NCBI GenBank assembly: GCA_034176765.1
Contig: JAXFTN010000131.1
Span: forward strand, 942-64,941
Source: Bacilli bacterium
GTDB taxonomy: Bacteria > Bacillota_I > Bacilli_A > RFN20 > CAG-826
DNA length: 64,000 nt
Reading direction: 5' to 3'
Below, piece by piece: positions 3,239-53,696 of the stretch. How positions within the stretch are numbered: the stretch's first letter is position 1; every line of letters starts with the position of its first letter. Position numbers and translations under genes: made by a program. Under the pieces are notes generated by a model that saw only the letters and a program-made list of their open reading frames with translations, was not told the origin of the DNA and ran no database searches.

Positions 3239-3313
3239 TCTTATTCCTCCTTCTTAATTTTTATTATATACTAATTGAGGAAAAGGAGAAAACTATTTTT
3301 CAAACTATTTATT

Positions 3314-3850
3314 ATGATTAATGTTATTTTATATCATCCAGAAATTCCTCAAAATACAGGAAATATAATGAGAACTTGTGTAGCAATGAATGCACGTTTA
3401 CATATTATTGGTCCATTACCTTTTTCAATCGATGATAAATCTTTAAAAAGAGCAGGTATGGATTATATAGATTCTTTAGAATTATTTTATTATCACAATT
3501 ATGAAGAATTTTATGAAAAATTCAGTGATAAAGAAATCTATTATATAACTAGGTATGCAAAAAAAACTTATAGTGATGTTCAATATAAAGATTATGTAAA
3601 TGATGATGTTTATGTTATGTTTGGGAGAGAATCAACAGGTATAGATCATGATATTTTGCGTGATCATTTGGATAGATGTTTAAGAATACCTATGGTTCCA
3701 AATGCTCGAAGTATGAATTTATCAAATTGTGTTGCAATAGTTGTAAGTGAAATTTGTCGTCAACATGATTTTATAAATCTTGCAAAACATGAAGTTATAA
3801 AAGGAGAAGACTTTCTAATTGAAGAAAAAAAATCAATCGCTAACGATTGA
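3314..3850 (+). CDS. trmL: tRNA (cytidine/uridine-2'-O)-methyltransferase, SpoU/TrmL family
   Basis: MINVILYHPEIPQNTGNIMRTCVAMNARLHIIGPLPF is the classic TrmL N-terminus. Start is taken at the internal ATG; the ORF track begins at a TTG 39 nt upstream. Confidence 0.8.
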   Translation: MINVILYHPEIPQNTGNIMRTCVAMNARLHIIGPLPFSIDDKSLKRAGMDYIDSLELFYYHNYEEFYEKFSDKEIYYITRYAKKTYSDVQYKDYVNDDVYVMFGRESTGIDHDILRDHLDRCLRIPMVPNARSMNLSNCVAIVVSEICRQHDFINLAKHEVIKGEDFLIEEKKSIAND

Positions 3851-4817
3851 TTTTTTCTATTAAGTTTAATTTATTAACAAGTATTACAAGAGATATAGAA
3901 ATAATACTATTAATACAAGCTTGTAAAGTATTCATTGGAAGACCAGATAATAATCCACTTAATTCAAAGAAAATTCCATCTGGTATTGTGTATAAAATAG
4001 GATTACATAAGGCACCAACAAATATTAATAAATATTTAAAGAATGGCTGTTTGAGTTTTTTAAATCCATAACCAGCAATTAAGGCTTCTAAAGCTTTAAT
4101 AACAATAGTAAATGGGACATACATTCCATATCCAGAAAATAAGTCAGCTAAACCCGCACCAATTGCACCAACTATAGCTCCTGAAACAGGGTCAATAATA
4201 CAAGCTGCTAGTAAAATAATTGCATCAGATAAATTTAAATAACCAGCACCATTAGAAATTGGTATTTGTAAGAAGAATGTAATAACAAATGTAATAGCTG
4301 CAAATAAAGCAACAAGACACATTTTTGTGATAAGTTGGTGAGTATTTAATTTTTTACTTTTTACACTATCAACATGTTCAACTTCTTTTAATAACGCATC
4401 AATATCGTTTTCTGTAAACACTTGAATTTTATTTTCTTTTAATAATTTAGCTGTTACACCATCGCCATCTATTATTGTGTTAGTAAATGTACCATCGTAA
4501 ATTTTGTTTGAGCCACAGCTTGGACTATTTGATTTTAATAAAGCTTTTGTAATATTTTGTTCTTTACAAATAGAAAGAGCAATTTCAGCACCTTTTTTAA
4601 AATAAGAAGTATTATCTTCATTTTCTTTATTGATTACTTTGTTGTTTTTAATTTCACTTGGAACACGTGGAGTTGGTAAACCTCCATCAACTTCAGGACA
4701 TACTGGTACGAGTTCATAGTATTGTTTTAATTTATTTAATTTTTCTAATTTGTTGCTTTTTCCGTCATAGCGACAATTGTTGCCTAATAGGCAACTACTA
4801 ATAAGTAGTTTTTCCAT
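3840..4817 (-). CDS. Fusion protein: N-terminal DUF523 (TudS-like [4Fe-4S] thiouracil desulfidase fold) plus a C-terminal polytopic membrane domain resembling an ECF-transporter S component
   Basis: The N-terminal ~150 aa carry the three DUF523 Cys motifs: SSCLLGNNCRYDG, VPVCPEVDGG and NSPSCGS. The C-terminal ~170 aa are strongly hydrophobic with 5-6 helices; the motif GAIVGAIGAGLADLFSGYG...FTIVIKALEALIAGYG resembles S components. Confidence 0.55.
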   Translation of the reverse strand: MEKLLISSCLLGNNCRYDGKSNKLEKLNKLKQYYELVPVCPEVDGGLPTPRVPSEIKNNKVINKENEDNTSYFKKGAEIALSICKEQNITKALLKSNSPSCGSNKIYDGTFTNTIIDGDGVTAKLLKENKIQVFTENDIDALLKEVEHVDSVKSKKLNTHQLITKMCLVALFAAITFVITFFLQIPISNGAGYLNLSDAIILLAACIIDPVSGAIVGAIGAGLADLFSGYGMYVPFTIVIKALEALIAGYGFKKLKQPFFKYLLIFVGALCNPILYTIPDGIFFELSGLLSGLPMNTLQACINSIISISLVILVNKLNLIEKINR

Positions 4818-4967
4818 TTTTAATCACCGATAATGATTATAGCATACATTTATTAAAGCTCAATAATGATTTTTATGCTTATTTTCAAAATAGTATTTGC
4901 TTTATATATTTATTGAGTGTAAAATATCTATAATTTAAGAAAGTATTTATTTGGAGAATTTAGGTTT

Positions 4968-5561
4968 ATGCAAAAGGGACTTTTGATTATTATTAGTGGA
5001 CCAAGTGGTGTTGGTAAAGGAACTGTTAGACGTCGTATTATGGAAGATGATAGTCTAAATCTTTCTTATTCCGTTTCAATGACTACTAGAGCTCCAAGAA
5101 ATAAAGAGGTCGATGGTGTTGACTATTTCTTTGTATCTAACGAAGAATTTGATCGTAATTTACAAAACGATAATTTTCTTGAGTGGGCTAATTTTGTAGG
5201 TAATCGTTATGGAACACCTAAAGATTATGTCGAAAAGCTTCGTGAAGAAGGAAAGAATGTTATTTTAGAAATTGAAATAGAAGGTGCTCAACAAGTATTA
5301 TCAAAATGTCAAGGTAATGATGTCATTTCAATTTTTTTAATGCCTCCTTCAATAGAACAACTTGAAGCACGTATTCGTGGTAGAAAAAGTGAATCTGAAG
5401 AAATTATTCAAGAACGTCTAGCAAAAGCAAGAAGAGAAATGTCTTCTCCAGCATTAAAATATCAATATCATTACATTGTATATAACGATAGAGTTGAAAG
5501 AGCTTCTGATGAGATTAAAAATATTATTAAAAGTAAACTTAATGCTAAGATAACAAAGTAA
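4968..5561 (+). CDS. gmk: Guanylate kinase
   Basis: P-loop IISGPSGVGKGTV is present and the ORF matches Gmk over its full length. RBS GGAGAA is present. Confidence 0.92.
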   Translation: MQKGLLIIISGPSGVGKGTVRRRIMEDDSLNLSYSVSMTTRAPRNKEVDGVDYFFVSNEEFDRNLQNDNFLEWANFVGNRYGTPKDYVEKLREEGKNVILEIEIEGAQQVLSKCQGNDVISIFLMPPSIEQLEARIRGRKSESEEIIQERLAKARREMSSPALKYQYHYIVYNDRVERASDEIKNIIKSKLNAKITK

Positions 5562-5571
5562 GGAGATAAAT

Positions 5572-6093
5572 ATGATTACTATATCAATACTAGGATTAGA
5601 TCAATTTGTTGTTGGTGATTACTCTCGTGAGATTACAAAAAAAATCGCTGATGCTTATGAAATTAACGAAGATGAAATTTTATTTTATGCTCCACAAGCT
5701 TTTATCTTCCATAAAGGATTTGATCAATCAGCTTACAATGTAGTTGTTAAAGTTGAAGCTGAAAGAAAATATGAAGTTTTTGAAAAAATTGTCTTTACTA
5801 TAATTTCAAAAACTTTATCTAAATATGTTATTCATATGAATATTCAATTTGTATATTTTGATGAAGAACATTGTTATTCATATAAAAATGAAGAATATCC
5901 ATTATATATGAGCGATTCAAATGTTGTTTATGATGGTGGTTATGAAGAAGAATCTGATGAAGATGTTGAAGTTTATGATGGAAACATTTTTGAAAATCTA
6001 GATGAATTAATCGAAGAAAAACAACGTGAACATGATGAACAAAATAATTGTGATTGTGATCATCACAATTGTGATTGTGGCCACAAGCATTAA
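5572..6093 (+). CDS. Hypothetical protein with an acidic linker and a Cys/His-rich C-terminal tail
   Basis: RBS AAGGAGA is present. A ~110-aa globular N-terminal part is followed by an E/D-rich low-complexity segment and the terminal CDCDHHNCDCGHKH. Confidence 0.4.
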   Translation: MITISILGLDQFVVGDYSREITKKIADAYEINEDEILFYAPQAFIFHKGFDQSAYNVVVKVEAERKYEVFEKIVFTIISKTLSKYVIHMNIQFVYFDEEHCYSYKNEEYPLYMSDSNVVYDGGYEEESDEDVEVYDGNIFENLDELIEEKQREHDEQNNCDCDHHNCDCGHKH

Positions 6094-11629: not shown

Positions 11630-13057
11630 TTGAAATTATTTGATTATATTCCACAAAACTTTTTCTCTATTCTCTCTAGTAAAAATAAAGATATTTATGC
11701 TATTGCTTTAATAGTGCTTCATAAATCTCTTCAAACTGAGGAAATGTCAATTAAAAAAGAAGATTACATTAGAGTTTTAAAAGAAAAAGCTAATGATATC
11801 ATAAATAATTTGGATGTTGATAGTGAAGAAGAAGTAGATGATGATACCAAAGAATCTTTAGTAAATATATCTTCTAAAGTTGCTTTTATTGTTAGAAGAC
11901 TTGAAGAAACTGGATGGATCGAAACAGAATTAAGAACTGATACTTTTGATGAATACATAATTTTACCTACTTATTCAATTCAAATGTTAAATGTATTATA
12001 CAATTTTGTTTCTGATCAAGAAACTGCATATAATTCTCTTGTTCACTCAACATATATTGACTTGAAATTTGAAGATGATGAACCTGATGAATTTATGTAT
12101 GCTACATTAGTAAGAGTTTACGAGAATACAAAAAATTTAAAAGTTGAACTTATTACATTAGGGCATCAAATTAGGATGTATCAAAATCGTCTAAGTAAAT
12201 TCTTTACAACAAACGATATTTTACATGACCATTTTGATGAATATAAAGTTCGTATTTCAGATAAATTATATCACCCATTAAAAACTTTTGATTCTGTTAC
12301 TAAATTCAAAAGACCAATAATTAATATTTTACAAAAGTGGTTGCGTAGCGAAGAAATTCGTAGCCGTATTGTTATGCAAGCAGTTGCATATGGTCGAAGC
12401 AAATCTAAAGAAGAAGTTGAAGCTGATATTATTGAAAAGATAAATTATATTTGTGATATGTATGAACAAATTAATTTAATGGTATCTGATATTGATGCAA
12501 AGCATTCAGAATATACAAAATCATCAGCAACAAAAATTATTTATCTAAATAATTCAGATAAATCAATTAAAGGTCATTTAGAGACGATCTTTAAAGCTTA
12601 TGCAAAAGCAAATAATGACGGAAAAGGTCTTGCTAATATTTTATCTAATATGCAACAAAGCATAAACGTAACAAATCAAGGTTTCATTGATCCTGATTCA
12701 TTAACTTTACCTCTTGTTAGAAATAGTCGCGTAGATTATGAACCTATGAAAATTATAAATACTTCAGAAGAAGCTGGAGATTATATGATGGATATTTTCT
12801 TAAGGGAAGCTCAATCTTCTTACACTGATGAGATGATTTATGAATTTATGCAACGTGCTTTCCAAGGTGAAGAAGAAGTGTTAATTAGTGATATCCCACT
12901 TCCAAGTTTTGATGCCTTTGTATTATTAATTCTTGGCACACTTAAAAAAGACGATGAAAAATGTTTCTATGAAGTTATCCAAGAAGAAGGTAAACTTCAT
13001 TCACAAGGTTATGTCCTACCAAATATAAAATTTAAGAGAAAGGAAGTATTAAATTAA
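11630..13057 (+). CDS. jetA: JetA-like protein (DUF3375; MksF/kleisin-like subunit of a Wadjet/MksBEF-type SMC complex)
   Basis: TTG start 8 nt after AAGGAGG. A TGaTATAAT extended -10 is upstream. It is the first gene of a three-gene operon ending in an SMC-like ATPase. Size of 475 aa and acidic helical composition are typical of JetA. Confidence 0.6.
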   Translation: MKLFDYIPQNFFSILSSKNKDIYAIALIVLHKSLQTEEMSIKKEDYIRVLKEKANDIINNLDVDSEEEVDDDTKESLVNISSKVAFIVRRLEETGWIETELRTDTFDEYIILPTYSIQMLNVLYNFVSDQETAYNSLVHSTYIDLKFEDDEPDEFMYATLVRVYENTKNLKVELITLGHQIRMYQNRLSKFFTTNDILHDHFDEYKVRISDKLYHPLKTFDSVTKFKRPIINILQKWLRSEEIRSRIVMQAVAYGRSKSKEEVEADIIEKINYICDMYEQINLMVSDIDAKHSEYTKSSATKIIYLNNSDKSIKGHLETIFKAYAKANNDGKGLANILSNMQQSINVTNQGFIDPDSLTLPLVRNSRVDYEPMKIINTSEEAGDYMMDIFLREAQSSYTDEMIYEFMQRAFQGEEEVLISDIPLPSFDAFVLLILGTLKKDDEKCFYEVIQEEGKLHSQGYVLPNIKFKRKEVLN

Positions 13058-13058
13058 T

Positions 13059-13691
13059 ATGTTTGAAGAAGAAATTGTAAAACTTTCAAATCAAGAACAA
13101 AAACAATTTGCTCAAGTTGTAAACAATTTATTATCCCAATCATATATAGTTCGTGAATATTACGATAGCCGTGAAAAAATGATCAAAATGAGTAATGACT
13201 ATCGTTTCATTGAAAGATATTATGAAGTATTTGAAGAATATCTTAAATATTCAGGTTGGACATTGGATAAAGATACGGCAACTGGTGTTATCGCTATTCG
13301 TAATGATTTTGATCAAAATCGTTTAAAAGTTGATAGAGAAACTTCTTTGGTTTTATTTACATTAAGATTTATTTATGAAAATGAAAATTCAAAAAACAAT
13401 GCAGCTAATCTAGGTGTTGGAAAAAATGTTTACTTAACAACACCTGAATTAATGAAATTTATGGTTGAGTATGGAATAACAATGCAAGGCAAAAAATTAA
13501 CAGGTCGTGGTTTAGGCCGTTGTTTACGTTTTGCTAACCAACACAATATTATTTCTAAAGTTAGTGGTACATTTGATGAAGGTAATGTCACTTTCTATAT
13601 TTTACCTTCAATTGCATTTGCTGTTGATAGTCAAAAGATAGCTGCAATGAGTGATGCTTTAGAAAAGTTAAGAGCAATGGAGGGCGAGTAA
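13059..13691 (+). CDS. jetB: JetB-like protein (DUF4194; MksE-like)
   Basis: Length is 210 aa. It is coupled by 1-2 nt spacing to jetA and jetC. Position and size match JetB/MksE. Confidence 0.6.
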   Translation: MFEEEIVKLSNQEQKQFAQVVNNLLSQSYIVREYYDSREKMIKMSNDYRFIERYYEVFEEYLKYSGWTLDKDTATGVIAIRNDFDQNRLKVDRETSLVLFTLRFIYENENSKNNAANLGVGKNVYLTTPELMKFMVEYGITMQGKKLTGRGLGRCLRFANQHNIISKVSGTFDEGNVTFYILPSIAFAVDSQKIAAMSDALEKLRAMEGE

Positions 13692-13692
13692 T

Positions 13693-16600
13693 ATGAAATC
13701 ATTAAAGAAAATGAAATTAATTAACTGGCACTATTTCTGGAATCAAACTATTGAATTCCAACCACTTGTTTTCTTAACAGGTTTAAATGGTTCTGGTAAA
13801 TCTACACTTATTGATGCTATGCAAGTTTTATTACTTGGTGATACATCAGGAAGGTTCTTCAATAAAGCTGCAACAGAAAAATCATCACGTACACTTAAAG
13901 GATATTTAAAATGTGAATTAGGTGATGCTGAAGATGGTGGCTTTAGATATTTAAGAAACGGTCGTTTTACTTCATATATTGCTATGGAGTTTTATGATGA
14001 TGTTAATAAATCATCATTTACATTTGGTATTGTTTTCGATGTTTTTCCAGATGGTGGAGTTGATCATCGCTTTTTCTGTTTAGATGATAAAATACCTGAA
14101 AATGAATTTATCGTTGATGATACACCACTTGATTTTAAACAATTAAGTGCATATTTTGCTGAAAATTATCCAAGTAAATTTAAATTCTTGGATTCAAATA
14201 AACAATATCAAGAATTATTAAAGAGACGTTTTGGTGGGTTAAAAGAAAAATATTTCTCTTTATTTAAGAAGGCTGTTTCTTTTACTCCTATTACTGACAT
14301 TGAGACTTTTATTACTGAATATATATGTGATTCACAAGCAAACATTAACATTAGTTCTATGCAAGAAAATATTCTTCAATATAAAAAACTACAAAATGAA
14401 GCTAATGTAATGGCTAATCGTATTCAAAGATTAACTGAAATTTCTAATGCGTATATTCAACATCAACAACAAAAAGAATCAGAAACATTATTTTCTTATA
14501 TTGTTGAAAAAGCCGATTATGAAAATGATTTAGCACGTATTAAAACATATAAAGTTGCTATTGAAGATGCTCAAAAAAGACTTCGTGATATTGAAAGTGA
14601 TTTAGTATATAATGATGACCAAATCAAAATATTAACAAGAAAAAAAGAACAATTAATATCGGATAAACTAAATAACGATACCTATAAATTAACTGACGAT
14701 TTATGGGAAGAAAAGAAAAAGTATGAAGAATCTTTAGCACGTATTGAAAAAGATAAAAATGTTACAATTGAAAACTTAAATAAGTATGCTACTTCATATC
14801 TTGAAACAGCTCAATTAATTTCATCAACATTATCAACTTTTGATTTAACTTTAATCGAAAAAGAACATCTTGATGATATTAATAAATTAATAGAATTATC
14901 TAGTGAAGTTATTGAAAAATGTTTAGAATTCAAGAATGTATATCTTGTTAATATTGAATCTTTAACTTCATTTGCACTAAATGAGTGGAGACAATTATTA
15001 GAAAGCTTTAAACAAACTATTTCTGGTTTTAATTTTAATTTATCCAAAATCGTTGCAGCTACTGAACAAAAAGCAGCTGTATTAAGACAACAAGAAGTTG
15101 ATATGCGTAATGGTGGTAAATCATATGAACGTGGATTAGTTTATTTACGTAATGAATTAATGTCTGAATTATCTAGAAGATATAATAAGAAAATTGATGT
15201 TTATATTTATGCTGATTTAGTTGACATTAATGATGAAAAATGGGGTAAAGCTATTGAAGGCTTCTTATACAATCAAAAATTCAATTTATTTGTTGATCCA
15301 CTTTATTATGCTGAAGCTCATGATATTTTAAAGAACTTGATGCGTTCATGTAATTATTATCATACAAGTTTAGTCGACCAACAAAAAGTTATCGAAAGAA
15401 ATTTTATCTGTGAATCAGGCTCTTTAGCAGAAGAAATTATTACTGATCATCAAGGAGCTAGAGCATATACTAATTTCTTATTAGGACGATTAATTAAATG
15501 TGATACTGTTAAACAAGCACGTAACTCTGGAAATGGTATTACAATGGACTGTGATTTATATAGAAACTTTACATTGTCTGTAATTCAACCACAACTTTAT
15601 CAAACTGCATATATTGGTAGAAGAGTTGGCGAAGAACAAATTTTAGCTAAACATAAAGCAGTTGAAGACTGCCGTAAATTATGTGATTCTTATCGTAGTT
15701 TGCACGATATCATTTCTGAAGCTAATGAACTTGAAGTTATTAATACATATGAAGTTAATAATTCGATGGCATTGATTGAAAATGCTTCAAATATTAAAGC
15801 TATTAAAGAAAACTTGAAGTTTATTGAAGACGAATTAAATAAACATGATTTAACTCAAATTCAATCATATGAACAACGTATTAGCGATATTACAGAAGAT
15901 CTTGAACAATTAGCAAAAGAAAAAGAAGATTTGTTAATTGAAAAAGGTAATTTGATTTCTCAAATAAAGAATTATCAAGAAGAGAAATTACCAAAAGAAC
16001 AATGTGCAGCTAATGAACGTTTAGAACGTTTAGAAAATATGTATGATGGTTTCTTTATTGATGAAATCGGTAATGTTGAATATCAAAAATTAGTCGATCA
16101 AGGTAAGACTACTATTGAAATTGTTACTGAAACTAAAGTCAACTTATCTAAAGCTCAATATTTAGCTAATTCTTCTAAATCAGCTGTCATTAGATTACGT
16201 AAAGATTATATTAAAGATTATCGTCTTTCATATGATGTTGATTCTGATGACAATGATGTTTACGATAATGAGCTAAATGAAATGAGAGATATTAAGTTAC
16301 CTCAATATCAATTAGCAATTGATGACGCATATAATAAAGCAACAAAACAATTTAAAGATGACTTTATTAATAAGTTAAGAACAGCAATTGAAACTGTTGA
16401 ATCACAAATTGATGAATTGAATGTTGCTTTAGCATCTTCTACATTTGGTAATGATTCTTATCGCTTCTTAGTAAGACCTTCAGTTGAATATCGTAAATAT
16501 TACGATATGATTAAAGATGATTTATTACTACAAGTTGGTGAAGATGATTCTGCTTTTGTCGAAAAATATAAAGATGTCATGGATGATTTATTTAGACAAA

Positions 16601-17073
16601 TAGTTGATGTAGGTGGACATGATGAAAGACAAAGTGCAATTATTGCAAATGTTGAAAAATTCACCGATTATCGTTCTTATCTTGATTTTGATATTGTTGT
16701 TACTAATAAAGATGGTATCGAACAACACTTATCAAAAACAATTAAGAAAAAATCTGGTGGTGAAACACAAACTCCTTTCTATATTGCTGTTCTAGCATCT
16801 TTTGCTCAATTATATAGAGTAAATGAGCCTGGAGAATTAGGTAATTCATTTAGACTAATTATCTTTGATGAAGCATTCTCTAAAATGGATAGAGGACGTA
16901 TTAAAGAATCAATTAGATTGTTATCAAAATTCGGATTACAAGTTATATTATCAGCCCCATCTGATAAGGTTGGAGATATCTCTGAGCTTGTAGATGAAAC
17001 TCTAGTTGTATTACACGATAAGTCTTCTTCAAGTGTCCGTTTATATGCTGAAGAAAAGAAATTATTAAACTAA
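13693..17073 (+). CDS. jetC: JetC-like SMC-family ATPase (MksB-like)
   Basis: N-terminal LINWHYFWNQTIEF...LTGLNGSGKSTLIDA (Walker A). There is a long central coiled-coil region. C-terminal ABC signature SGGETQ and Walker B LIIFDEAFSKMD are present. Length is 1126 aa. Confidence 0.78.
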   Translation: MKSLKKMKLINWHYFWNQTIEFQPLVFLTGLNGSGKSTLIDAMQVLLLGDTSGRFFNKAATEKSSRTLKGYLKCELGDAEDGGFRYLRNGRFTSYIAMEFYDDVNKSSFTFGIVFDVFPDGGVDHRFFCLDDKIPENEFIVDDTPLDFKQLSAYFAENYPSKFKFLDSNKQYQELLKRRFGGLKEKYFSLFKKAVSFTPITDIETFITEYICDSQANINISSMQENILQYKKLQNEANVMANRIQRLTEISNAYIQHQQQKESETLFSYIVEKADYENDLARIKTYKVAIEDAQKRLRDIESDLVYNDDQIKILTRKKEQLISDKLNNDTYKLTDDLWEEKKKYEESLARIEKDKNVTIENLNKYATSYLETAQLISSTLSTFDLTLIEKEHLDDINKLIELSSEVIEKCLEFKNVYLVNIESLTSFALNEWRQLLESFKQTISGFNFNLSKIVAATEQKAAVLRQQEVDMRNGGKSYERGLVYLRNELMSELSRRYNKKIDVYIYADLVDINDEKWGKAIEGFLYNQKFNLFVDPLYYAEAHDILKNLMRSCNYYHTSLVDQQKVIERNFICESGSLAEEIITDHQGARAYTNFLLGRLIKCDTVKQARNSGNGITMDCDLYRNFTLSVIQPQLYQTAYIGRRVGEEQILAKHKAVEDCRKLCDSYRSLHDIISEANELEVINTYEVNNSMALIENASNIKAIKENLKFIEDELNKHDLTQIQSYEQRISDITEDLEQLAKEKEDLLIEKGNLISQIKNYQEEKLPKEQCAANERLERLENMYDGFFIDEIGNVEYQKLVDQGKTTIEIVTETKVNLSKAQYLANSSKSAVIRLRKDYIKDYRLSYDVDSDDNDVYDNELNEMRDIKLPQYQLAIDDAYNKATKQFKDDFINKLRTAIETVESQIDELNVALASSTFGNDSYRFLVRPSVEYRKYYDMIKDDLLLQVGEDDSAFVEKYKDVMDDLFRQIVDVGGHDERQSAIIANVEKFTDYRSYLDFDIVVTNKDGIEQHLSKTIKKKSGGETQTPFYIAVLASFAQLYRVNEPGELGNSFRLIIFDEAFSKMDRGRIKESIRLLSKFGLQVILSAPSDKVGDISELVDETLVVLHDKSSSSVRLYAEEKKLLN

Positions 17074-24547: not shown

Positions 24548-24689
24548 CTCTTTTCTATCATAGAACTTAACATTATCAAAATTTGATAGTGTGATATTTT
24601 TTTTGTAACAATTAGTAAATAAATTAAAGTTTCTATTTGTTATTGACTTTATATTTTGATTTTGATTTAATAATTTTGATAAAAGTAGT

Positions 24690-24875
24690 AGTAATTACTT
24701 ATTAAGATTGTAGAGAGTTAGTGGTTGGTGAAAACTAATATTTTAAAGTAATGAACTCGACTTTGTGTAAAGTATCCGTTAATCTGCGTTAAAGATATTA
24801 ATGAGTGCACGAATCGTGAATTAAGGTGGTACCGCGCTTAAAGGCGTCCTTATGTTTTAAGGGCTTTTTTTATTT
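24690..24875 (+). promoter_or_regulatory. T-box leader (Leu-specific) controlling leuS
   Basis: Stem-I elements (AGAGAG, GTGGTTGGTG) are present. A CUC specifier sits in GAACTCGA. Conserved T-box sequence AATTAAGGTGGTACCGCG is at 24819-24837. It is followed by terminator GCGCTTAAAGGCGTCC...GGGCTTTTTTT. Confidence 0.7.
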
Positions 24876-24890: not shown

Positions 24891-27284
24891 ATGGCCTACG
24901 ATTATTATAAAATTGAGAGAAAATGGCAAAAATATTGGGAAGATAACAATGTTTATTATTGTGATGTTTATGATTTCTCTAAAAAACCTTTTTATTCATT
25001 AGATATGTTTCCTTATCCATCGGGTGCTGGTTTACATGTTGGTCATCCTGAAGGCTATACTGCTAGTGATATTGTTTGCCGTAAAAAAAGAATGGAAGGA
25101 TATAATGTATTGCATCCAATGGGTTGGGATGCTTTTGGTCTTCCAGCAGAGCAATATGCATTAAAAACAGGTAACCATCCAGGAGAATTTACAAAACAAA
25201 ATATTGCAACTTTTAAAAAGCAAATTAAGATGTTAGGTTTTTCAATAGACTGGTCTAAAGAAATTTCTACAGCAGATCCTGAGTACTACAAATGGACACA
25301 ATGGATTTTTAAAAAGATGGTTGAAGATGGCTTAGCAAAACACGTTGATATGCCAGTCAACTGGTGTGAAGAATTAGGAACTGTTTTAGCAAATGATGAG
25401 ATTATTGACGGAAAATCTGAAAGAGGAGGTTATCCTGTTGTAAGAAAGAATATGAAACAATGGGTTATTGAAATACCTCGATACGCTGATAGATTGCTTG
25501 AAGGACTAGATAACATAGAATGGCCAGAATCTACTAAAGAAATTCAACGTAACTGGATTGGAAAATCTGTCGGCGCTAATATTACTTTTAAAGTAGCTGG
25601 AACAGATTACTCTTTTGAGGTATTTACAACTCGATGTGATACTTTGTTCGGTGCTACTTATGCTGTTTTAGCTCCTGAACATTCACTTGTTGATTCTATT
25701 ACAACAAAAGAACAACTTGATGAAGTTAAGCGTTATAAAGAACTATGTGCTAGAAAATCAGATTTAGAAAGAACTGAATTAAATAAAGATAAAACAGGCG
25801 TATTTACAGGTGCATATGCTATAAACCCAGTAAATGGAAAACAGATTCCTATATGGATTGGTGATTATGTTTTAGCAAATTATGGAACAGGCGCTGTTAT
25901 GGCTTGCCCTGCTCACGATCAAAGGGATTATGAATTTGCAAAAAAATATGGCTTGAATATTATACCTGTTTTAGAAGGTGGAGATATTACTAAAGAAGCT
26001 TTTGAAGGTGATGGACCTCATATTAATTCTTCTTTTATGGATGGATTAAATATTGACCAAGCTAAAAATAAAATGTTTGAATTCTTGGAAAACAATAATT
26101 GTGGTTCAAGAAAATCAAATTATAAATTACGTAACTGGATTTTTGCTCGTCAACGTTATTGGGGTGAACCAATCCCAGTAGTTCATTATGAAGATCATGA
26201 TGAATTATTAAGCGATGATGAACTTCCACTTGTTTTACCTGAGCTTGACCAATATAAGCCAAAAATTAATGGACAAGCACCTCTTGAAAACGCAACTGAA
26301 TGGGTAAATTATAAAGGTGGCAAAAGAGAAACCACAACTATGCCAGGTAGTGCAGCTTCATCATGGTATTTTATTAGATATTTAGATCCTCATAATGATA
26401 AAGAAATTGCTGATAAAAAATTAATGGAACATTGGTTACCTGTTAATTTATATATTGGTGGAGCAGAACATGCTGTCGGACATTTACTATATTCTCGTTT
26501 CTATACAAAATATTTACATGATAAAGGAATAGTACCTGTTGATGAACCTTTCAAAAGATTATTCCATCAAGGTATGATTCTTGGTGAAAACGGTGAAAAG
26601 ATGTCTAAATCAAAAGGAAATGTCGTAAATCCTGATGAGATTTGTAATCAATATGGTGCAGATGCATTGAGGCTATATGAAATGTTTATGGGACCACTTG
26701 AAGCATCTTTACCTTGGTCGACAGGTGGCTTAGAGGGAGCAAAACGCTTTTTAGATCGAGTTTATCGTATATTTAGTGATGAACAATTCTTAAAGAAGTT
26801 CACAAATAACAATGATGGTGCTTTAGATTATGCTTATAACGCTTGTGTTAAGAAAGTTAGTGAAGATTTTGAAGCCCTTGGATTTAATACTGCTATTTCT
26901 GCAATGATGATTTTTATTAATGAAGTTTATAAAGCTAACACACTTTATGTTCCTTACTTGGAAGGCTTTGTAAAAATGTTATTCTGTGTATGTCCTCATA
27001 TTGGTGAAGAACTTTGGGAAATGTTAGGCCATAAAGACATTATTGATTTTGAACCATGGCCAACATATGATGAGTCTAAACTTGTTAAAAATTCTGTTGA
27101 GATTGGTGTTCAAGTTAATGGCAAATTAAGAGGAACAATTGAAATAAATATTAATGACTCAGAAGATAAAGTTAAAGAAATAGCTTTGTCTAATGAAAAT
27201 GTTAAGAAATTTATTGATGGACACGATATTAAAAAAATAATTGTTGTAAAGAATAAAATTGTAAATATTGTTATTGCTATGTAA
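24891..27284 (+). CDS. leuS: Leucyl-tRNA synthetase
   Basis: HVGHPEGY (HIGH) and KMSKSKGN (KMSKS) motifs are present. Length is 797 aa. Confidence 0.95.
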
Positions 27285-31317: not shown

Positions 31318-32085
31318 ATGGTTATTACTATTGATATGGGAAATACCAATATCTTTCTTGGTGTTTACGAAGATGGAACTCTTGTCCATACTTTTAGAAC
31401 TCTAACTGATCGTAGTAAGAGTTATGATGAATATCTCCAATTATTTAGGGATTTCATTAAATCGAAAGAACTTAATAACCACTTTGAGGGAGCAATACTT
31501 TGTTCAGTTGTCCCTTCATTAACGGTGGTAGTTTCTAAGGCTATAAGAGATGCTTTTATAACGGAAGTAAAAATTGTTGGCCCTGGAATGAAAACAGGAT
31601 TACAAGTTAAAACGAATAATCCTTGTGAAGTTGGAACGGATTTAATTTCTGTTTCTGTTGGAGCATTAGCTAAATATGGTAAACCATGTTTAATTGCTGA
31701 TTTAGGTACAGCTTCTAAAATTTTACTTGTTGATAAAGAAGGATGTTTTAGTGGTGTAGTTGTCATGCCAGGAATTATGATTTCGGCAAAAGCTTTAGCA
31801 AATAATGCAGCTCAACTTAGTGAAACATCATTAGAAGTTCCACCAACTGTATTAGGTCGTAATACTGTTGATGCAATGAATTCTGGATCAATTTATGGAA
31901 CAGTTGCACAAATAAAAGGTTTGTGTGAAATGATAGAAAAAGAAATCGGATATAATTGTCAAAAGATTTTAACAGGTGGATATGCCCCACTTATTAAAAC
32001 TTTTTTAGGTGACTTCCAATATGATAGAAACCTTATTTTAGATGGTTTATATAAATTATATGAGAAAAACAGAAAGGAAAAATAA
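31318..32085 (+). CDS. coaX: Type III pantothenate kinase
   Basis: ITIDMGNTNI at the N-terminus and the GTD...GTA ASKHA-fold motifs are present. Length is 255 aa. Confidence 0.85.
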   Translation: MVITIDMGNTNIFLGVYEDGTLVHTFRTLTDRSKSYDEYLQLFRDFIKSKELNNHFEGAILCSVVPSLTVVVSKAIRDAFITEVKIVGPGMKTGLQVKTNNPCEVGTDLISVSVGALAKYGKPCLIADLGTASKILLVDKEGCFSGVVVMPGIMISAKALANNAAQLSETSLEVPPTVLGRNTVDAMNSGSIYGTVAQIKGLCEMIEKEIGYNCQKILTGGYAPLIKTFLGDFQYDRNLILDGLYKLYEKNRKEK

Positions 32086-32116
32086 TTTATTTTAAATAAA
32101 TTTAAATAATAATAAT

Positions 32117-32761
32117 ATGAAAAATAATAGAAGAATTAGACAAATTACAGGAATAGCTTTGCTATCTGCATTAGCTATTGCTTTACAATTCTTATCAAAT
32201 TTTATTGCATCAATTGGTATTGCTAGTATTACGTTAGCATTAATACCAATTGTTGTTGCGGCTTGTGTGTATGGACCTTATGCTGGCTTATTAATAGGTG
32301 TTCTAGTTGGGGCATCTGTTTTGCCTGGAGCAGTATTTTTCTTAAGTTTTAGTCCAGTAGTTACAGTTTTTGTTTGTTTACTTAAGACGGGTTTAGCTGG
32401 ATTGTTAGCAGGATTTATTTTCAAATGGCTATGCAATAAAAATACATTATTAGCAGTTATTATAGCTTCTATTTCTGTTCCGCTTGTTAATACTGGTTTA
32501 TACTTAATAGCAGTTTATGTTTTCTATATTCCAGCTTTTGAAGCAGTACTCGAAGAAGGTACTAATGTATACACATATGTACTTGTTGCGACATTGTCAA
32601 TTAATTTCTTATTAGAATTCTTATTAAACTCATGCCTATCACCAGTTATTCATCGTTTAATTTTATTATTAAATAAGAAATATGATATTGGGATGATTAA
32701 CTATAATAAAAAAGATAATGAAGTAGAAGATAATAATAATGATAATAAATCTATAGACTAA
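32117..32761 (+). CDS. ECF-transporter S-component-like membrane protein (substrate unknown; adjacent to coaX)
   Basis: About 6 helices and ~200 aa. Gly/Ala-rich helix packing typical of S components. Followed by a terminator. Confidence 0.4.
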   Translation: MKNNRRIRQITGIALLSALAIALQFLSNFIASIGIASITLALIPIVVAACVYGPYAGLLIGVLVGASVLPGAVFFLSFSPVVTVFVCLLKTGLAGLLAGFIFKWLCNKNTLLAVIIASISVPLVNTGLYLIAVYVFYIPAFEAVLEEGTNVYTYVLVATLSINFLLEFLLNSCLSPVIHRLILLLNKKYDIGMINYNKKDNEVEDNNNDNKSID

Positions 32762-40018: not shown

Positions 40019-42061
40019 TTATATTAATATAACAACAAAAGTTAGAGCTAAAACTAGAACGAATCCGAAACAAACCATTCCTAGAGCAAATGAGAATGTT
40101 GATGTTTCATCGTGGAAATAGTCATTAACAGTTAATGCTATACCATAATATTTTTCAGCATATTTATGTGGATTCTTTTTATTTGGTTTTATCTTATCAA
40201 TTAACATACCTATCTTATAACTTAATGGATATTTATTATAGTGATAAGTATGAGATCTTAATATTGTTTTTCTTAATAAATAAATTGATCCATCTATAAT
40301 TATAGAGAAAGATTTTAATATTAATAAACAAATTGTCATTACTATTCTAATAATAAAGATATAACCTTTTTCTAAATCCAAGAATGAAGGCCATAAATTT
40401 AGATATTCCTTGTTTTTAATTAATAATAAACGAACAATTACACCATAAATAAATGCACCGATTAATAGAGAAATTAATGCACCTTTAATGCTTTCCCATG
40501 AAAAGAAATGAATCGTGTGTTCGAGTGGTTCAACATTAAAGAATTCCATTGCTGCTCCAGATAAAGGAACATTGATTATATTTGGAACTACACCAAGAAT
40601 TGGAATAATAAGTGAAGAAATAATGAGAACAACTGTTGTAAGTGGGGAACAATAATTTTTCATGTTGTCAAATTGTAGTTGTTTTTCATCATCACTATTT
40701 TTTTCAATAAACAAGTTAACAAATAGTTTAGTCATATAAGCTATTGTTAATCCACCTGAGATTAAGAAAATCCATTCTACAATTTTAAAATAAACAAGTT
40801 GTCCACCAGTTAATTCATTAATATGAATATATTCAACGATGGATTCATGAATCATTGTTTTAGATACATATCCATTAAGACCTGGTATACCCATAATTCC
40901 TAAGGCACCAATTAAAAATACAATCATAAATAATGGTTTCTTACGACCAAAACCTTTGATATCATTAAGGTTTAATGTATGTAAGTTCATCGCTACTAAA
41001 CCAGCACTCATAAATAAAACTAATTTAATTGATGAGTGATTGATCATATGTAATAATGCACCTTGACCAGCAAGAGCACCTTCCTCTCCTAAAAGTGTCA
41101 TCATAGCAATACCTACTAATATAAAGCCTATTTGAGACATTGAAGAGCAAGCAAGTGTTCTTTTTAAATCAATTGAGAATAAAGCGAGTATTGCACCAAA
41201 GAACATTGTTATTACTGCAAAAACTAATAATGTTTGTCCCCAAGATGCATTAGCAAAGAAGATGTTTGATGTAATAACAATAATTCCATAAACACCAGTT
41301 TTTGTAAGAATACCTGAAAGTAATGCACTTGCAGGAGCAGGAGCTACTGGGTGAGCTTTAGGTAACCAAATATGAAGTGGATACATACCAGCCTTTGCTC
41401 CAAAACCTAATAACATCAAAATACCAGATGTAAAAATAAATGGTGTTACTCCGTTTAAAGTAATGTAATCTTTAATTCCTTCAAATGAATATGTTCCGGT
41501 TTTAAAATATAGCATAAACATACCCATTAATAAAATCATACCTGAAACGACTGCGACAGCTAGATAAGTACCACCAGCTTTCATTGTTTCTTCTTTTTCA
41601 TCATGAACAACTAAAGGATAAGATGCGAATGACATTAACTCAAAGAAAATAAATGTTGTAAATAAGTCATTGGAAAAGAAGACTCCAACAACACCAGATA
41701 AAGTTAATAAATAGAAGAAATAGTAACGATCTTTATTTATGTAATGACGCATATAGTCTTTTGAAAATGTAATCGTTGCAAGCCATAAAAAGATAGATAC
41801 AGTTGCATAAATAATTCTAAATGCATCAGCTTTAAAAGATAAAGACATTCCACAAAGCGAAGGAATAAGTAATTCTTTATTTCCATTTATAACAAATAAT
41901 ATAATCAAAATAATCATTGATATCATTTCAATTAAATTAATACTTATTGCGAAAATTTCTCTAAGTTTAGGGAATCTTTTTGAAATAAAGAATGAAATCG
42001 TTCCAAATACCATAGGGAAGAATATTAAGAATAAGATTAAAAAGATCATATTATAGAACAC
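40019..42061 (-). CDS. Mrp antiporter subunit A-like (NuoL/ND5-family large subunit with C-terminal extension)
   Basis: WLPKAHPVAPAPASALLSGIL antiporter-subunit signature. 680 aa, ~20 helices. Last gene of the cluster. Confidence 0.8.
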   Translation of the reverse strand: MFYNMIFLILFLIFFPMVFGTISFFISKRFPKLREIFAISINLIEMISMIILIILFVINGNKELLIPSLCGMSLSFKADAFRIIYATVSIFLWLATITFSKDYMRHYINKDRYYFFYLLTLSGVVGVFFSNDLFTTFIFFELMSFASYPLVVHDEKEETMKAGGTYLAVAVVSGMILLMGMFMLYFKTGTYSFEGIKDYITLNGVTPFIFTSGILMLLGFGAKAGMYPLHIWLPKAHPVAPAPASALLSGILTKTGVYGIIVITSNIFFANASWGQTLLVFAVITMFFGAILALFSIDLKRTLACSSMSQIGFILVGIAMMTLLGEEGALAGQGALLHMINHSSIKLVLFMSAGLVAMNLHTLNLNDIKGFGRKKPLFMIVFLIGALGIMGIPGLNGYVSKTMIHESIVEYIHINELTGGQLVYFKIVEWIFLISGGLTIAYMTKLFVNLFIEKNSDDEKQLQFDNMKNYCSPLTTVVLIISSLIIPILGVVPNIINVPLSGAAMEFFNVEPLEHTIHFFSWESIKGALISLLIGAFIYGVIVRLLLIKNKEYLNLWPSFLDLEKGYIFIIRIVMTICLLILKSFSIIIDGSIYLLRKTILRSHTYHYNKYPLSYKIGMLIDKIKPNKKNPHKYAEKYYGIALTVNDYFHDETSTFSFALGMVCFGFVLVLALTFVVILI

Positions 42062-43517
42062 CTCCTAAAAGTATAGAAGATATTAGTTCGACAAATGGTT
42101 GAGAGATAATACCTAAGATAATCGATAAGGCACTAAAAACAATAAATGTTGATAGATATAATTTATTAGGTTCTTGAGATTTATCATAAATTTCTTGATT
42201 TATTTCATTTGGTTTATACATAAATGCTCTAAAAGGAATATTTAATGTATATACAGCAGTAAGTAGTGCTGACACTAAAATACAACCTATACCTATATAA
42301 CTAAAAGCATTACCTAATTCAATACTTGCCATACCGATATACCATTTAGAAATAAAACCAGCAAATAGTGGGACTCCGATTAATGATAATGATGCAATTG
42401 TAAAGTTAATGAATGTAATTGGCATCTTTTTTCCAAGCCCATTAAGTTCATATACATAATGAGCATGAGAATTTTTAATGATAGCACCACAAGTAAAGAA
42501 TAAACAAATTTTAGCAAATGAATGGAATAACATATGTAATACAGCTGCTAATAATCCAGTCTTATTCATAAACGAAACTGCTAATAAAATATAAGATAAG
42601 TTTGATATAGTTGAGTAAGCAAGTCTTCTTTTGAAATGTTGCTCCTTTAATGCCATCATCGAACCATATAGAATTGTAATAGATGACATTATTATAGTAA
42701 CTACTTGTACCCATGAATTAGACATCAAATTATAATTGAAATTATAAAAAGTTGATCTCATAATTGCAAAGACACCAGCTTTAACAACTGCAACTGCATG
42801 GAGTAATGCAGTAGTAGGAGTAGGAGCAGCACCAGCCATTGGTAACCAGAAGCATAAAGGGAAGACAGCTGATTTTACACCAAATCCTAAGAAAGTTAAT
42901 AGATAAGCAACTAAGGATATAGTACTATTAGATTCAATCAAACCTCCAAAAGTAAACTCACATGATCCACTTAAATGTAAAAGAATAATCAATCCAACAA
43001 GAGCAATAGATGAACCTGTTAATGAAAAATATAAATAATAGCGTCCAGCCTTTCTAGCTTCAGGAGTATAAGTATGTACAATAAGTGGTAATGTAACGAT
43101 TGTTAATAATTCATAAAAGATAAATAAAGTAAATAAATTGCTTGCAAATGAAATACCAAGAACAACACCAAAAGTCATAACATAATAAGCATTATATTTT
43201 TCTTTTCGTTCTTCATCCTTCATATAAGCATAAGAATATAAAAGTGAAAATGGCCATAAAAGCGAAACCATACCAGCAAATATTTTACCTAAACCATCAA
43301 GCTTTATTCCTAGGTTTATTTTTTCAGATAAAATAATAATTTTTGAAGTTTCAGTATTAATAGTAAATAAGAATACAAAAGTAATTAGTGAAGTTAATAT
43401 AACGCTAACTAAAGAAATAATTTTATATATTTTTTCATTAGTAATATTAACTATTCGTAATATAATGCCGGTAATAATCGGTAATAATATAGGAATTAAT
43501 AAAAATAAGCTACTCAT
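42051..43517 (-). CDS. Mrp antiporter subunit D-like (NuoM/N family), paralog 3
   Basis: WLPMAGAAPTPTTALLHA signature. Start taken at the internal ATG preceded by AGAGG; the ORF track extends to 43580. Confidence 0.72.
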   Translation of the reverse strand: MSSLFLLIPILLPIITGIILRIVNITNEKIYKIISLVSVILTSLITFVFLFTINTETSKIIILSEKINLGIKLDGLGKIFAGMVSLLWPFSLLYSYAYMKDEERKEKYNAYYVMTFGVVLGISFASNLFTLFIFYELLTIVTLPLIVHTYTPEARKAGRYYLYFSLTGSSIALVGLIILLHLSGSCEFTFGGLIESNSTISLVAYLLTFLGFGVKSAVFPLCFWLPMAGAAPTPTTALLHAVAVVKAGVFAIMRSTFYNFNYNLMSNSWVQVVTIIMSSITILYGSMMALKEQHFKRRLAYSTISNLSYILLAVSFMNKTGLLAAVLHMLFHSFAKICLFFTCGAIIKNSHAHYVYELNGLGKKMPITFINFTIASLSLIGVPLFAGFISKWYIGMASIELGNAFSYIGIGCILVSALLTAVYTLNIPFRAFMYKPNEINQEIYDKSQEPNKLYLSTFIVFSALSIILGIISQPFVELISSILLGGVL

Positions 43518-43527
43518 AATAATACCT

Positions 43528-45003
43528 CTAGAATAAGAATCCTTGAACTGCAGAAATAATGTAATTTGAAAAAATACCAATTAATACTGCAGAAACAGTT
43601 AAAATAATCAAGACAGTAGACATCAATTTATTTTCTTTTACTTTTGAAAATTCTTGATTTTTATCTCCTGGGAAGAATGCTTTTATTGTAATAGGTAATA
43701 AGTAAAGGGCTGTAAAAACAGCTGAAGTTAATAAAACAATACAAGCGATAATACCAACTGCTGTTGATCCACTATTTAAAGCACCCATAGCTAGATACCA
43801 TTTTGAAGTGAATGGACCAGTAGGTGGAATACCAATTAATCCTAGTGAACATATTGTATAGCACCACATTGTGATTGGCATTTGTTTTCCAACACCTGTT
43901 AATTCATCAACATTATGTTTTTGTAAATTGTGGATCATAATACCAGCTACTAAGAATAAGCAAACTTTAATACAAGCATGAGAAGCAATGTGTATAAAAG
44001 AACCTGCTAGTGATTGTTCGTTTAATAAACTGATACCTAATAAAATATAAGATAATTGAGAAACAGAAGAGTAAGCTAAACGTTTCTTAAAATTATTTTG
44101 TAATAAAGCAAGACCAGAGCCTAATAAAATTGTGATTAAAATTAATGTAATCCAAGTATATTGCAACCATGTTCCTTTTATAAAGTCTGTACCTACTATA
44201 AAAAATAAAATACGAACGATAAATAAGACACCAGCTTTAGTAATGATACCAGAAAGAACGGCTGATGCAGGAGCTGGAGCAACAGGGTGAGCTGTTGGTA
44301 GCCATTCTTGTAATGGGAACATACCTGCTTTTGTACCAAAACCAATAAATGCAAGTAGTAATGAAACTAAAATCAATGTTTTGTGTGCGTTAGCTTCAGT
44401 TAAATCTAGTGATCCACCTAAAACAAATTCGCAACCATTTGTTGTATAAGCATATAAAACAAAGACAGCAAATAATCCTAAAAAGGCACCACCTATTGAA
44501 TAAATTAAATATTTAATAGCAGCTCTAATTGATTCTTTAGTTTTATCATAAAGAACTAGTGGCATTGAAAGAAGTGTTAGCATTTCAAATCCAAGATAAA
44601 GGGTTATTAAGTTACCTGAATAACATAATAATAAAAGTGTTGCTTCAGACATTAAGTAGAAAGAGAAGAATTTATTTGAGTTCTCATCGTGTTCAAAATA
44701 TCTAAAAGCATATAAGCTAACTAATAAGAATATAACTGAAATGATGATAGCAAAGAAATTTGAAACCCCATCATTTTTAAATAAAATCAACAAATTATCA
44801 GTTAATTTAAAAAGTTCTACTCTTTGTCCACTAAAAATAGTTAAAAGAATGACGCTTATTACTATTAAACTTGATAGTGAAGAAATCAAAATGTTAATTA
44901 ATTTTTTATTTTGTGTTTTTAAAAAGTGAACTACTATTCCTAATATTAATGGAACAAGTATAGAAATAAACATAAAAATAAACATATCTTCCCTCCTATG
45001 CAA
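43528..45003 (-). CDS. Mrp antiporter subunit D-like, paralog 2
   Basis: WLPTAHPVAPAPASAVLSGI signature. Length is 491 aa. Confidence 0.75.
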   Translation of the reverse strand: MHRREDMFIFMFISILVPLILGIVVHFLKTQNKKLINILISSLSSLIVISVILLTIFSGQRVELFKLTDNLLILFKNDGVSNFFAIIISVIFLLVSLYAFRYFEHDENSNKFFSFYLMSEATLLLLCYSGNLITLYLGFEMLTLLSMPLVLYDKTKESIRAAIKYLIYSIGGAFLGLFAVFVLYAYTTNGCEFVLGGSLDLTEANAHKTLILVSLLLAFIGFGTKAGMFPLQEWLPTAHPVAPAPASAVLSGIITKAGVLFIVRILFFIVGTDFIKGTWLQYTWITLILITILLGSGLALLQNNFKKRLAYSSVSQLSYILLGISLLNEQSLAGSFIHIASHACIKVCLFLVAGIMIHNLQKHNVDELTGVGKQMPITMWCYTICSLGLIGIPPTGPFTSKWYLAMGALNSGSTAVGIIACIVLLTSAVFTALYLLPITIKAFFPGDKNQEFSKVKENKLMSTVLIILTVSAVLIGIFSNYIISAVQGFLF

Positions 45004-46489: not shown

Positions 46490-46491
46490 AT

Positions 46492-46872
46492 CTAGTCCTC
46501 CTTGTGTTTGTGTATTGCATGATACACTTCATCTAAATTAAGAGTGTGATATTTTGAATATAACCTTACTGTTAGTGCTAAAGATATAGCTGTAACAGAA
46601 ACAGAAACAACAATACCTGTTAAGACTAGACCAGCAGGAATAGGATTTACATAAGATGAAGGATCGGTACTACCATTATTTAAGATTGGTGGGACACGAT
46701 CACCTTGAATATATCCCATAGATGCAAGAAATAAGTATGTTCCTGTATCCATAATATTTAACCCAATAATTTTCTTTAATAAGTTACGATGGAATAAGAG
46801 TAGAGCAAACCCAATGCCAAATAATAAGATGGCAACTACTTCTACTAAATGATCAAGTAAAGCTTGTAGCAT
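46492..46872 (-). CDS. Mrp antiporter subunit C-like (NuoK-like)
   Basis: LLFGIGFALLLFHRNLLKKIIGLNIMDTGTYLFL motif. ATGA overlap with the upstream gene. Confidence 0.7.
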   Translation of the reverse strand: MLQALLDHLVEVVAILLFGIGFALLLFHRNLLKKIIGLNIMDTGTYLFLASMGYIQGDRVPPILNNGSTDPSSYVNPIPAGLVLTGIVVSVSVTAISLALTVRLYSKYHTLNLDEVYHAIHKHKED

Positions 46873-46873
46873 A

Positions 46874-49289: not shown

Positions 49290-49469
49290 TTCTCCACCTT
49301 CTTTCACCTTTAAAACTATACCACTATAAGATTTTTAAATCAATTATTACATAGTAATAATATAGTATTTATCATAAATATTTTTTTATTAATGAAATAT
49401 GTTTTTCTTAACAATAAAGTACAAAAAAAATAAAATTTGTTTTTTTTTATCAAAACTAGTCGTTATTAG

Positions 49470-50811: not shown

Positions 50812-50823
50812 GGAGGTAAGAAA

Positions 50824-52434: not shown

Positions 52435-52446
52435 GAGGTAAGTACG

Positions 52447-53007: not shown

Positions 53008-53021
53008 GAGGGTAAATAGTT

Positions 53022-53681: not shown

Positions 53682-53696
53682 GGAGGAATAAAAGAA

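Follow-up and report, generated by a model that had tools for sequence, protein, structure and literature searches.

Does the joining of a sulfur-removing enzyme and a membrane carrier subunit in one polypeptide mean that the two halves work on the same molecule? The question is raised by a gene in a 64,000-nucleotide stretch of DNA from an uncultured, gut-type Bacilli bacterium of low G+C (contig JAXFTN010000131.1; this whole 64-kb stretch is hereafter called the window), which occupies positions 3840..4817 of the minus strand and comprises 325 codons and a stop codon. According to both the list of open reading frames (ORFs) and the sequence itself, it is an uninterrupted frame of 325 amino acids (aa) from an ATG start to a TAG stop, and the standard bacterial code reads cleanly in this window of 28% G+C. 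Pfam assigned two non-overlapping domains to the product, PF04463 (2-thiour_desulf, formerly DUF523) at residues 5-138 and PF07155 (ECF-ribofla_trS) at residues 163-314, in agreement with an earlier note on this DNA, which had described one 325-aa ORF holding a DUF523 domain and a domain like the substrate-binding (S) component found in transporters of the energy-coupling factor (ECF) type. In automated annotation the product goes by 'ECF transporter S component' or 'DUF523 domain-containing protein' and nothing more. Our best explanation, in which we place about even confidence, is a lineage-specific fusion in which an ordinary TudS desulfidase is tethered to a PdxU/HmpT-like S-component, making a bifunctional protein whose halves most likely do not serve one pathway.

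The fusion was found in independent assemblies, and is thus not a frameshift or an assembly artefact; the earlier note had considered that a frameshift might conceal two separate genes here, and none was found. Uninterrupted orthologues are present in four other loci (L001, L005, L003, and L004), and the protein databases contain the same fusion as P0001 (96% identity; a cluster of 179 member sequences), P0002 (90% identity; NCBI metagenome-assembled genome (MAG) LOHA10_bin.022), and the more distant P0004 (about 50% identity, 321 aa), which occurs in two assemblies, an NCBI MAG and an ENA assembly. P0004 shares 58% identity with the window protein in the TudS part and 44% in the S part. The ratio of nonsynonymous to synonymous substitution rates (dN/dS), calculated by the Nei-Gojobori method for one pair, the window against L001, was 0.106 in the TudS part and 0.057 in the S part but reached 0.50 in the linker, showing that both halves are maintained as functional units under strong purifying selection while the linker is relaxed. 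Poor in conservation, the linker (residues 136-162; 4332..4412, minus strand) takes in the final helix of TudS and a basic KSKK stretch; in the alignment it is 4-5 residues shorter in P0004. Its high ratio and its other length in P0004 argue against a fixed geometry between the domains. In the AlphaFold model of the fusion (mean predicted local distance difference test score, pLDDT, 88.6; predicted template-modelling score 0.62), the linker was modelled as a single continuous helix running into the first helix of the membrane domain (DSSP helix 136-182), with a pLDDT of 68 for residues 151-160.

The architecture is very rare. In 5.8 billion proteins searched by word index, with the best 120 matches to the whole protein tallied, the two-domain arrangement was seen only in P0001, P0002, and P0004. 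When 1.84 billion cluster representatives were scanned exhaustively with HMMER, P0004 was the sole full-length match (326 bits) among the best 150, a range covering fusions down to about 128 bits, and the next match (181 bits) contained TudS only. A profile search with the S-domain returned more than 1,600 stand-alone S-components, and among its best 120 matches the only N-terminal fusions were P0001 and P0002, both close orthologues. An ECF S-component as a partner of TudS is therefore seen in three clusters of one lineage only. Two further clusters, P0003 and P0005, have truncated or chimeric members; P0005, from a 4.8-kb NCBI MAG contig, encodes a 223-aa protein that is near-identical to the window TudS over roughly its first 128 residues and then continues into unrelated sequence; this is an assembly chimera or else a rearranged allele of the fusion gene. 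No description of an S-component with an N-terminal cytoplasmic enzyme was found in the searchable literature, where DUF523 and ECF are mentioned together only in an unrelated context, and a 2024 survey of S-component-fold fusions named neither DUF523, nor a desulfidase, nor any other enzyme as a partner (PMC11109136).

The N-terminal half (residues 1-135; 4413..4817, minus strand) is a TudS/DUF523 [4Fe-4S] desulfidase domain. PF04463 matched with 158.1 bits (cutoff 34.7, E 1.8e-46) over profile positions 2-141 of 141, phmmer aligned residues 2-143 to the crystallised TudS 6z92 with 43% identity (E 1.3e-32), and Foldseek placed the predicted model on 6z92 and 6zw9 with a TM-score of 0.89, normalised to target length, and a root-mean-square deviation (rmsd) of 2.0-2.3 Å. 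The motifs of the fusion protein are SSC9LLGNNCRYDG, C40PE42VDGG, and S98PS100C101GS, and the TudS blocks CLLG..RYDG, CPEV.GGLPTPR, and SPSCGS (PF04463; PDB 6z92, 6z96) are the same in it. Residue alignment to 6z92 identified Cys9 (codon at 4791..4793, minus strand) as the first cluster ligand, equivalent to Cys10 of TudS_A; Arg16 (4770-4772, minus strand) as the phosphate-binding Arg17; Cys40-Pro41-Glu42 (4692..4700, minus strand) as the second ligand and catalytic glutamate, Cys43 and Glu45; and Ser98-Pro99-Ser100-Cys101 (4515..4526, minus strand; codons checked by eye) as the catalytic serines and third ligand, Ser101, Ser103, and Cys104. The roles of these residues in TudS_A are taken from PMC10611767. 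Thus the three cysteines, the glutamate, both serines, and the arginine are identical to those of TudS, bearing out the retention of the three cluster cysteines reported in the earlier note; P0004 also keeps the cysteines, with lysine at the Arg17 position. Two differences were observed: the fusion protein has an extra cysteine, Cys15, beside Arg16, and its TudS domain is tethered covalently to a six-helix membrane domain, whereas characterised TudS is soluble and single-domain.

With active-site motifs essentially identical to those of the crystallised enzyme and no sign in them of a new specificity, the TudS half appears, as judged from sequence, to be of the ordinary kind. The preferred substrate of TudS is 4-thio-UMP, the 4-thio form of uridine monophosphate (PMC10611767; the preference for the monophosphate is restated in PMC11417400). 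The earlier note had proposed, as one option, a membrane-tethered DUF523 enzyme of new specificity; its tethering is the better-supported part, and the new specificity is not favoured by motifs that match the crystallised enzyme. A comparable described architecture is RudS (TudS-DUF1722), which removes 4-thiouridine modification from tRNA (PMC11417400) and likewise joins TudS to a partner at the C-terminus with the potential to redirect how the enzyme is used, but there the partner is a tRNA-binding domain and here it is an integral membrane transporter subunit. Identity with RudS was rejected because there was no DUF1722 match and the C-terminal half corresponds to PF07155. The statement in the earlier note that DUF1722 is replaced holds insofar as the domain is absent; that it is the usual partner does not hold for the nearest Firmicutes relatives, which carry NUDIX, GNAT, HAD, and other domains instead.

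The C-terminal half (residues 163-325; 3843..4331, minus strand) is an ECF S-component domain by profile and by predicted structure. PF07155 matched with 94.9 bits (cutoff 26.7, E 7e-27) and PF12822 (ECF_trnsprt) matched the same stretch with 39.3 bits (cutoff 30.7, E 9e-10). In the model, this domain consists of six helices, at residues 163-182, 197-207, 210-227, 231-254, 258-283, and 286-316. Its best Foldseek match was HmpT/PdxU2, chain S of the Lactobacillus brevis ECF transporter structure 4hzu (TM-score 0.82 by target length, rmsd 2.1 Å), which sequence comparison likewise ranked first among solved structures (E 1.1e-5, 23% identity). Other S-components gave lower TM-scores by target length, namely TmRibU 0.75, ThiT 0.67-0.70, FolT about 0.65, and BioY 0.58, with an overall range of 0.54-0.75 against RibU, ThiT, BioY, FolT, and PanT. 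The S-component resemblance suggested in the earlier note, together with its proposal that modelling be used to check it, is in this way supported by the predicted model. The fusion protein shares PF07155 with HmpT/PdxU2, from which membership of COG4720 is inferred, and the two differ in the 160-aa N-terminal extension of the fusion, its separate branch in the tree described below, and its lack of a MocR or pdxK neighbour. RibU (PDB 3p5n, 5kbw) gave its name to the same Pfam family and has the same fold (TM-score 0.72-0.75), but the fusion S-domain scored 24.6 bits with the RibU model against a cutoff of 99, has no flavin mononucleotide riboswitch, and leaves RibU as an outgroup.

Helix 1 contains an AxxxA motif, A170-L-F-A-A174 (4296..4310, minus strand), which aligns with A13...A17 of HmpT; this motif is needed for the docking of S-components on EcfT (PMC11109136). 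At this position P0004 has G-I-L-S-S, with the small residues G...S. By a positive-inside count, the three outward loops contain no Lys or Arg, and about 12 such residues lie on the N-terminal linker, the turn between helices 4 and 5 of the S-domain, and the C-terminus. This distribution predicts that both termini face the cytoplasm and that the Fe-S domain is cytoplasmic, as the earlier note had thought worth checking. Reading the translated ORFs of the window, with Pfam run on about ten of them, recognised no EcfA, EcfA', or EcfT. Another S-component is encoded in the window (31318-32761, plus strand), where coaX, for type III pantothenate kinase, is followed by a 214-aa ECF S-component (32117-32761; PF12822 and a weak Thia_YuaJ match) that is likely a PanT-type pantothenate carrier. 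The presence of this second S-component shows that ECF transport is in use in this genome and suggests that a shared ECF module is probably encoded elsewhere in it.

In order to assign a class of ligand to the S-domain, its candidate pocket and its stand-alone relatives were compared. Seven pocket columns, D198, Y233, T237, K241, Y276, N296, and Q299 (spanning 3921..4226, minus strand), are invariant in the alignment of the fused proteins with stand-alone relatives whose genes adjoin MocR-type regulators, DUF436, or a kinase. Their equivalents in HmpT are E41, W76, S80, H84, Y120, N140, and Q143, and of the six conserved pocket residues of HmpT four are kept (E41 as Asp, Y120, N140, and Q143). 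HmpT was originally predicted to carry hydroxymethylpyrimidine (HMP), a pyrimidine, and its bound ligand is pyridoxamine (PMC4860826). PdxU and PdxU2/HmpT belong to COG4720/PF07155, and pdxU and pdxK are in the regulon of the MocR-family regulator PdxR (PMC9997740, PMC5320631, PMC11619246). The stand-alone S relatives were sampled in 80 metagenome loci (565 kb in total; 41 clusters after collapse at 80% identity). A divergent MocR-type regulator, with a GntR helix-turn-helix and an aminotransferase-like domain, lies directly upstream in 18 of the 80 loci (12 of the 41 clusters), and a DUF436 gene is adjacent in 11 loci (6 clusters), two loci having both. The gene of one relative, P0125, overlaps a Phos_pyr_kin gene (PdxK/ThiD family, that is, pyridoxal/HMP-kinase-family), and the contexts of P0121, P0124, P0277, P0337, and L087 consist of scattered, mostly unrelated genes. 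No pdxK was found in the 80 loci, and no riboswitch in 20 loci of stand-alone relatives. The PdxR-like and kinase contexts of the relatives, the 4hzu_S match, and the invariant pocket together point, by analogy, to a vitamin-B6 vitamer or an HMP-like small heteroaromatic as the most likely ligand of the S-domain.

These stand-alone relatives form a group of their own interest. S-components of about 168 aa that match PF07155 and fall under every NCBIfam specificity cutoff were seen at L026, L037, and 16 further loci among L013-L092, and at these loci a divergent MocR-type regulator and/or a DUF436 (PF04260) gene adjoins the S-component. Some of the MocR-type regulators at S loci are only about 360 aa long and lack the C-terminal part of the aminotransferase-like domain. 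DUF436 may be part of a B6-type salvage regulon.

Turning to the enzyme half, its relatives are joined to many kinds of partners. Among 120 listed TudS matches, a hand count gave about 48 with NUDIX, about 15 with GNAT, 5 with HAD, 5 with a methyltransferase, 3 with DapF, and 3 with the CCA-adding enzyme, and single cases that include cytidine deaminase, DHH, Macro, DeoC, HPPK, FtsK, GGDEF, and a DNA-alkylation-repair domain. These other Firmicutes fusions belong to the same TudS subfamily (46-59% identity) and usually have TudS at the N-terminus, but their partners are soluble, unlike the membrane S-component found here. The three stand-alone TudS loci P0048, P0031, and P0006 have no neighbours in common. 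Each is surrounded by an assortment of largely unrelated genes, with neither an S gene nor a gene of pyrimidine metabolism close by. Many of the closest Firmicutes homologues (P0006, P0010, P0132, P0141, P0142, P0146, P0147, P0173, P0181, P0216, P0219, P0221, and P0225) carry Lys/Arg-rich low-complexity C-terminal tails of 80-220 aa, in some cases with repeats such as KRSYGDKKPYGE; these tails might bind RNA and so play the role that DUF1722 has in RudS.

Taking the two halves together, we propose that the C-terminal half would be a functional S-component of the group-II ECF kind, belonging to the HmpT/PdxU (COG4720, PF07155) clade and having both ends in the cytoplasm, whose pocket of Asp, Lys, Tyr, Tyr, Thr, Asn, and Gln would bind a small polar N-heteroaromatic micronutrient, a vitamin-B6 vitamer being ranked first and an HMP-type pyrimidine second. 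For delivery of the ligand, the AxxxA motif of helix 1 would dock on a shared EcfAA'T module whose genes lie elsewhere in the genome. A basic helical tether of loose conservation would keep the N-terminal TudS at the membrane's inner face, and there the enzyme, acting as TudS does in other proteins, would convert 4-thio-UMP, 4-thiouracil, or 2-thiouracil, whether released by the turnover of RNA or present in the environment, to the corresponding uracil compound and sulfide. Since the membrane half resembles a vitamin-B6/HMP-type carrier, the halves probably act on different molecules, and since the three stand-alone TudS loci have no common neighbours and the Firmicutes fusion partners are so many and different, they most likely do not form one pathway. 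The fusion would then be one of the many that TudS has made, tolerated and kept in this lineage.

Several observations weigh against this proposal. Conserved fusions of a transporter subunit with an enzyme usually mean a common substrate, and this one survived to about 50% sequence identity. The NUDIX, HAD, cytidine deaminase, DHH, CCA-adding enzyme, and DeoC partners are nucleotide or RNA enzymes, and since many TudS partners are of this kind, TudS fusions are not all random. On the side of the S-domain, every NCBIfam specificity model stayed below its cutoff, including TIGR04002 (55.8/120), TIGR04522 (EcfS_MSC_0063; 49.7/60), the FolT family (33.9/60), and RibU (24.6/99), so that assignment to any of these four was rejected. 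His84 and Gln87 of HmpT are replaced by Lys and Glu in the fusion protein. In a rough neighbour-joining (NJ) tree, the fused S-domains group with P0121 and L087 on a separate branch, which lies beside HmpT and P0125 and outside the MocR/DUF436 clade, with RibU as the outgroup, so the transfer of a ligand from the MocR/DUF436 relatives is not secure. Furthermore, the fused gene has no MocR/PdxR or pdxK gene close to it in the window, in L005, or in L003, and in the window no riboswitch.

The first alternative, which we regard as unlikely and yet deserving of real weight, is that capture and processing are coupled, in that a thiolated pyrimidine (for example 4-thiouracil, 2-thiouracil, 4-thiouridine, or a thio-analogue of HMP) is brought in through the S-domain and the tethered TudS desulfurises it on its arrival in the cytoplasm, keeping the toxic thio-base from salvage by uracil phosphoribosyltransferase (UPRT). 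The conservation of the fusion with purifying selection on both halves is consistent with this, as are the predicted position of the TudS domain on the side where substrate is released and the separate NJ branch of the fused S-domains. In other bacteria, TudS allows exogenous thiouracil to be used for growth (PMC11417400), the salvage route makes 4-thiouracil toxic (PMC12210855), and the nearest characterised S-component was, as noted, first predicted to carry a pyrimidine (PMC4860826). Against these points, no TudS gene was present within about 6 kb of the stand-alone S relatives in any of the 80 loci, and the three stand-alone TudS loci returned the lack of S and pyrimidine genes described above. 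The pocket core is the same as in relatives from MocR/PdxR and kinase contexts, the linker varies in length and sequence, and the TudS active site gives no sign of a new specificity. To our knowledge, no ECF system imports a nucleotide like 4-thio-UMP, the compound preferred by TudS, and this is not typical ECF cargo. The two fused lineages also have no neighbours in common, the P0004 lineage having an Na+/H+ exchanger and BipA and the window lineage trmL and gmk, and the same TudS subfamily has the long list of partners given above. The suggestion in the earlier note that the membrane domain captures a sulfur-modified nucleobase for the enzyme half is thus not supported, given the 0/80 co-occurrence of TudS at S loci, the 12 of 41 clusters with MocR, the closeness to 4hzu_S, and the shared pocket core. 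It keeps some weight with us on account of the retention of the fusion, the nucleotide and RNA enzymes among TudS partners, and the pyrimidine prediction for the nearest S-component. A vectorial import-and-detoxify device, in which the S-component has been retuned for tRNA-derived thiolated pyrimidines in the gut and hands them directly to the tethered desulfidase, seems to us rather improbable.

The second alternative, very unlikely in our estimate, is that the S-fold half no longer transports and is a membrane anchor, or a ligand sensor that gates the Fe-S enzyme, comparable to 5TMR receptor domains. S-component folds have been reused as receptors fused to soluble domains, although a C-terminal 5TMR fold is called exceptional in the same survey (PMC11109136), and here the soluble domain is N-terminal and an enzyme. 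The small residues that replace the AxxxA alanines in the P0004 lineage and the absence of an ECF module from the reading of the window ORFs would suit a protein that has left transport; the window protein, however, keeps A170...A174, its pocket core is invariant, its S part has the low dN/dS given above, and another S-component lies within the window. The Pfam match is to transporter S-components with none to PF07694, and assignment as an S-fold 5TMR receptor was not adopted, the AxxxA motif, which such receptors lack, being present. The last alternative, in which an error of sequencing or assembly merged two neighbouring genes, is almost certainly wrong. The truncated or chimeric P0003 and P0005 show that errors or rearrangements of the gene exist in some assemblies, but the identical in-frame junction is shared by the window, L001, L005, L003, L004, and the 179-member cluster, and is conserved at about 50% identity.

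With respect to expression of the gene, no internal start codon for separate synthesis of the S-component was seen on reading the sequence, and the leader is very short. A promoter-like site (TTGAGC, 16 nt, TG-TATAAT) with a GGTGAT ribosome-binding site was located at 4823..4863 (minus strand) by a consensus scan, which is not evidence of function, as the scan gave fewer sites than were obtained in shuffled sequence. Rfam gave no match at all upstream of the fusion gene (4700-5050), and so no riboswitch, and in the whole window it matched a T-box only. This T-box leader (24667-24854, plus strand; 107 bits) lies directly upstream of a 797-aa ORF (24891-27284) whose translation reads as a leucyl-tRNA synthetase.

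The remaining surroundings contain no second TudS, second PF07155 domain, or pdxK in the window. A convergent SpoU-family methyltransferase gene (trmL-like, 3275-3850) overlaps the 3' end of the fusion gene with its own 3' end by 11 bp (3840-3850), as it also does in L005. On the other side, beyond gmk, a 173-aa ORF (5572-6093, plus strand) without a Pfam match terminates in a tail rich in Cys and His, NNCDCDHHNCDCGHKH; its position is conserved in L005. At 11630-17073 (plus strand), genes for JetA (PF18982), a DUF4194 JetB-like protein, and an SMC-like JetC (1126 aa) stand in a row with no JetD/Toprim gene, an arrangement that suggests an MksBEF-type condensin or a Wadjet system without the nuclease, and the next gene downstream resembles glgC from its sequence. 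As read from translations, the window also holds a Mrp/Mnh-type multi-subunit cation/proton antiporter operon (40019-49307, minus strand) and, adjoining it, an Rnf-like operon (49504-54800) with two ApbE-like genes after it. Between ApbE-like genes, at 57164-58148 (minus strand), another small multi-helix membrane protein, Hpre_diP_synt_I (PF07456), adjoins a small 153-aa ORF.

The fusion is a new architectural variant of two known kinds of protein, undescribed in the searchable literature, and because both halves fall in well-defined families it implies no new chemistry or fold. If the two halves did have a common substrate, ECF transport would be extended to modified nucleobases and a natural coupling of transport with detoxification would be at hand; the import-and-detoxify device would be, as far as known, the first case of a nucleobase-type ECF substrate and of an S-component physically coupled to an enzyme that processes its cargo. 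If they do not, the protein would show that an S-component tolerates an N-terminal load of 150 aa, which bears on the toppling mechanism, and it would be a cautionary case for inferring function from fusion, given that TudS fuses with many kinds of partner. In addition, the analysis draws attention to a large family of S-components of about 168 aa, unnamed by the NCBIfam specificity models and linked to MocR regulators and DUF436.

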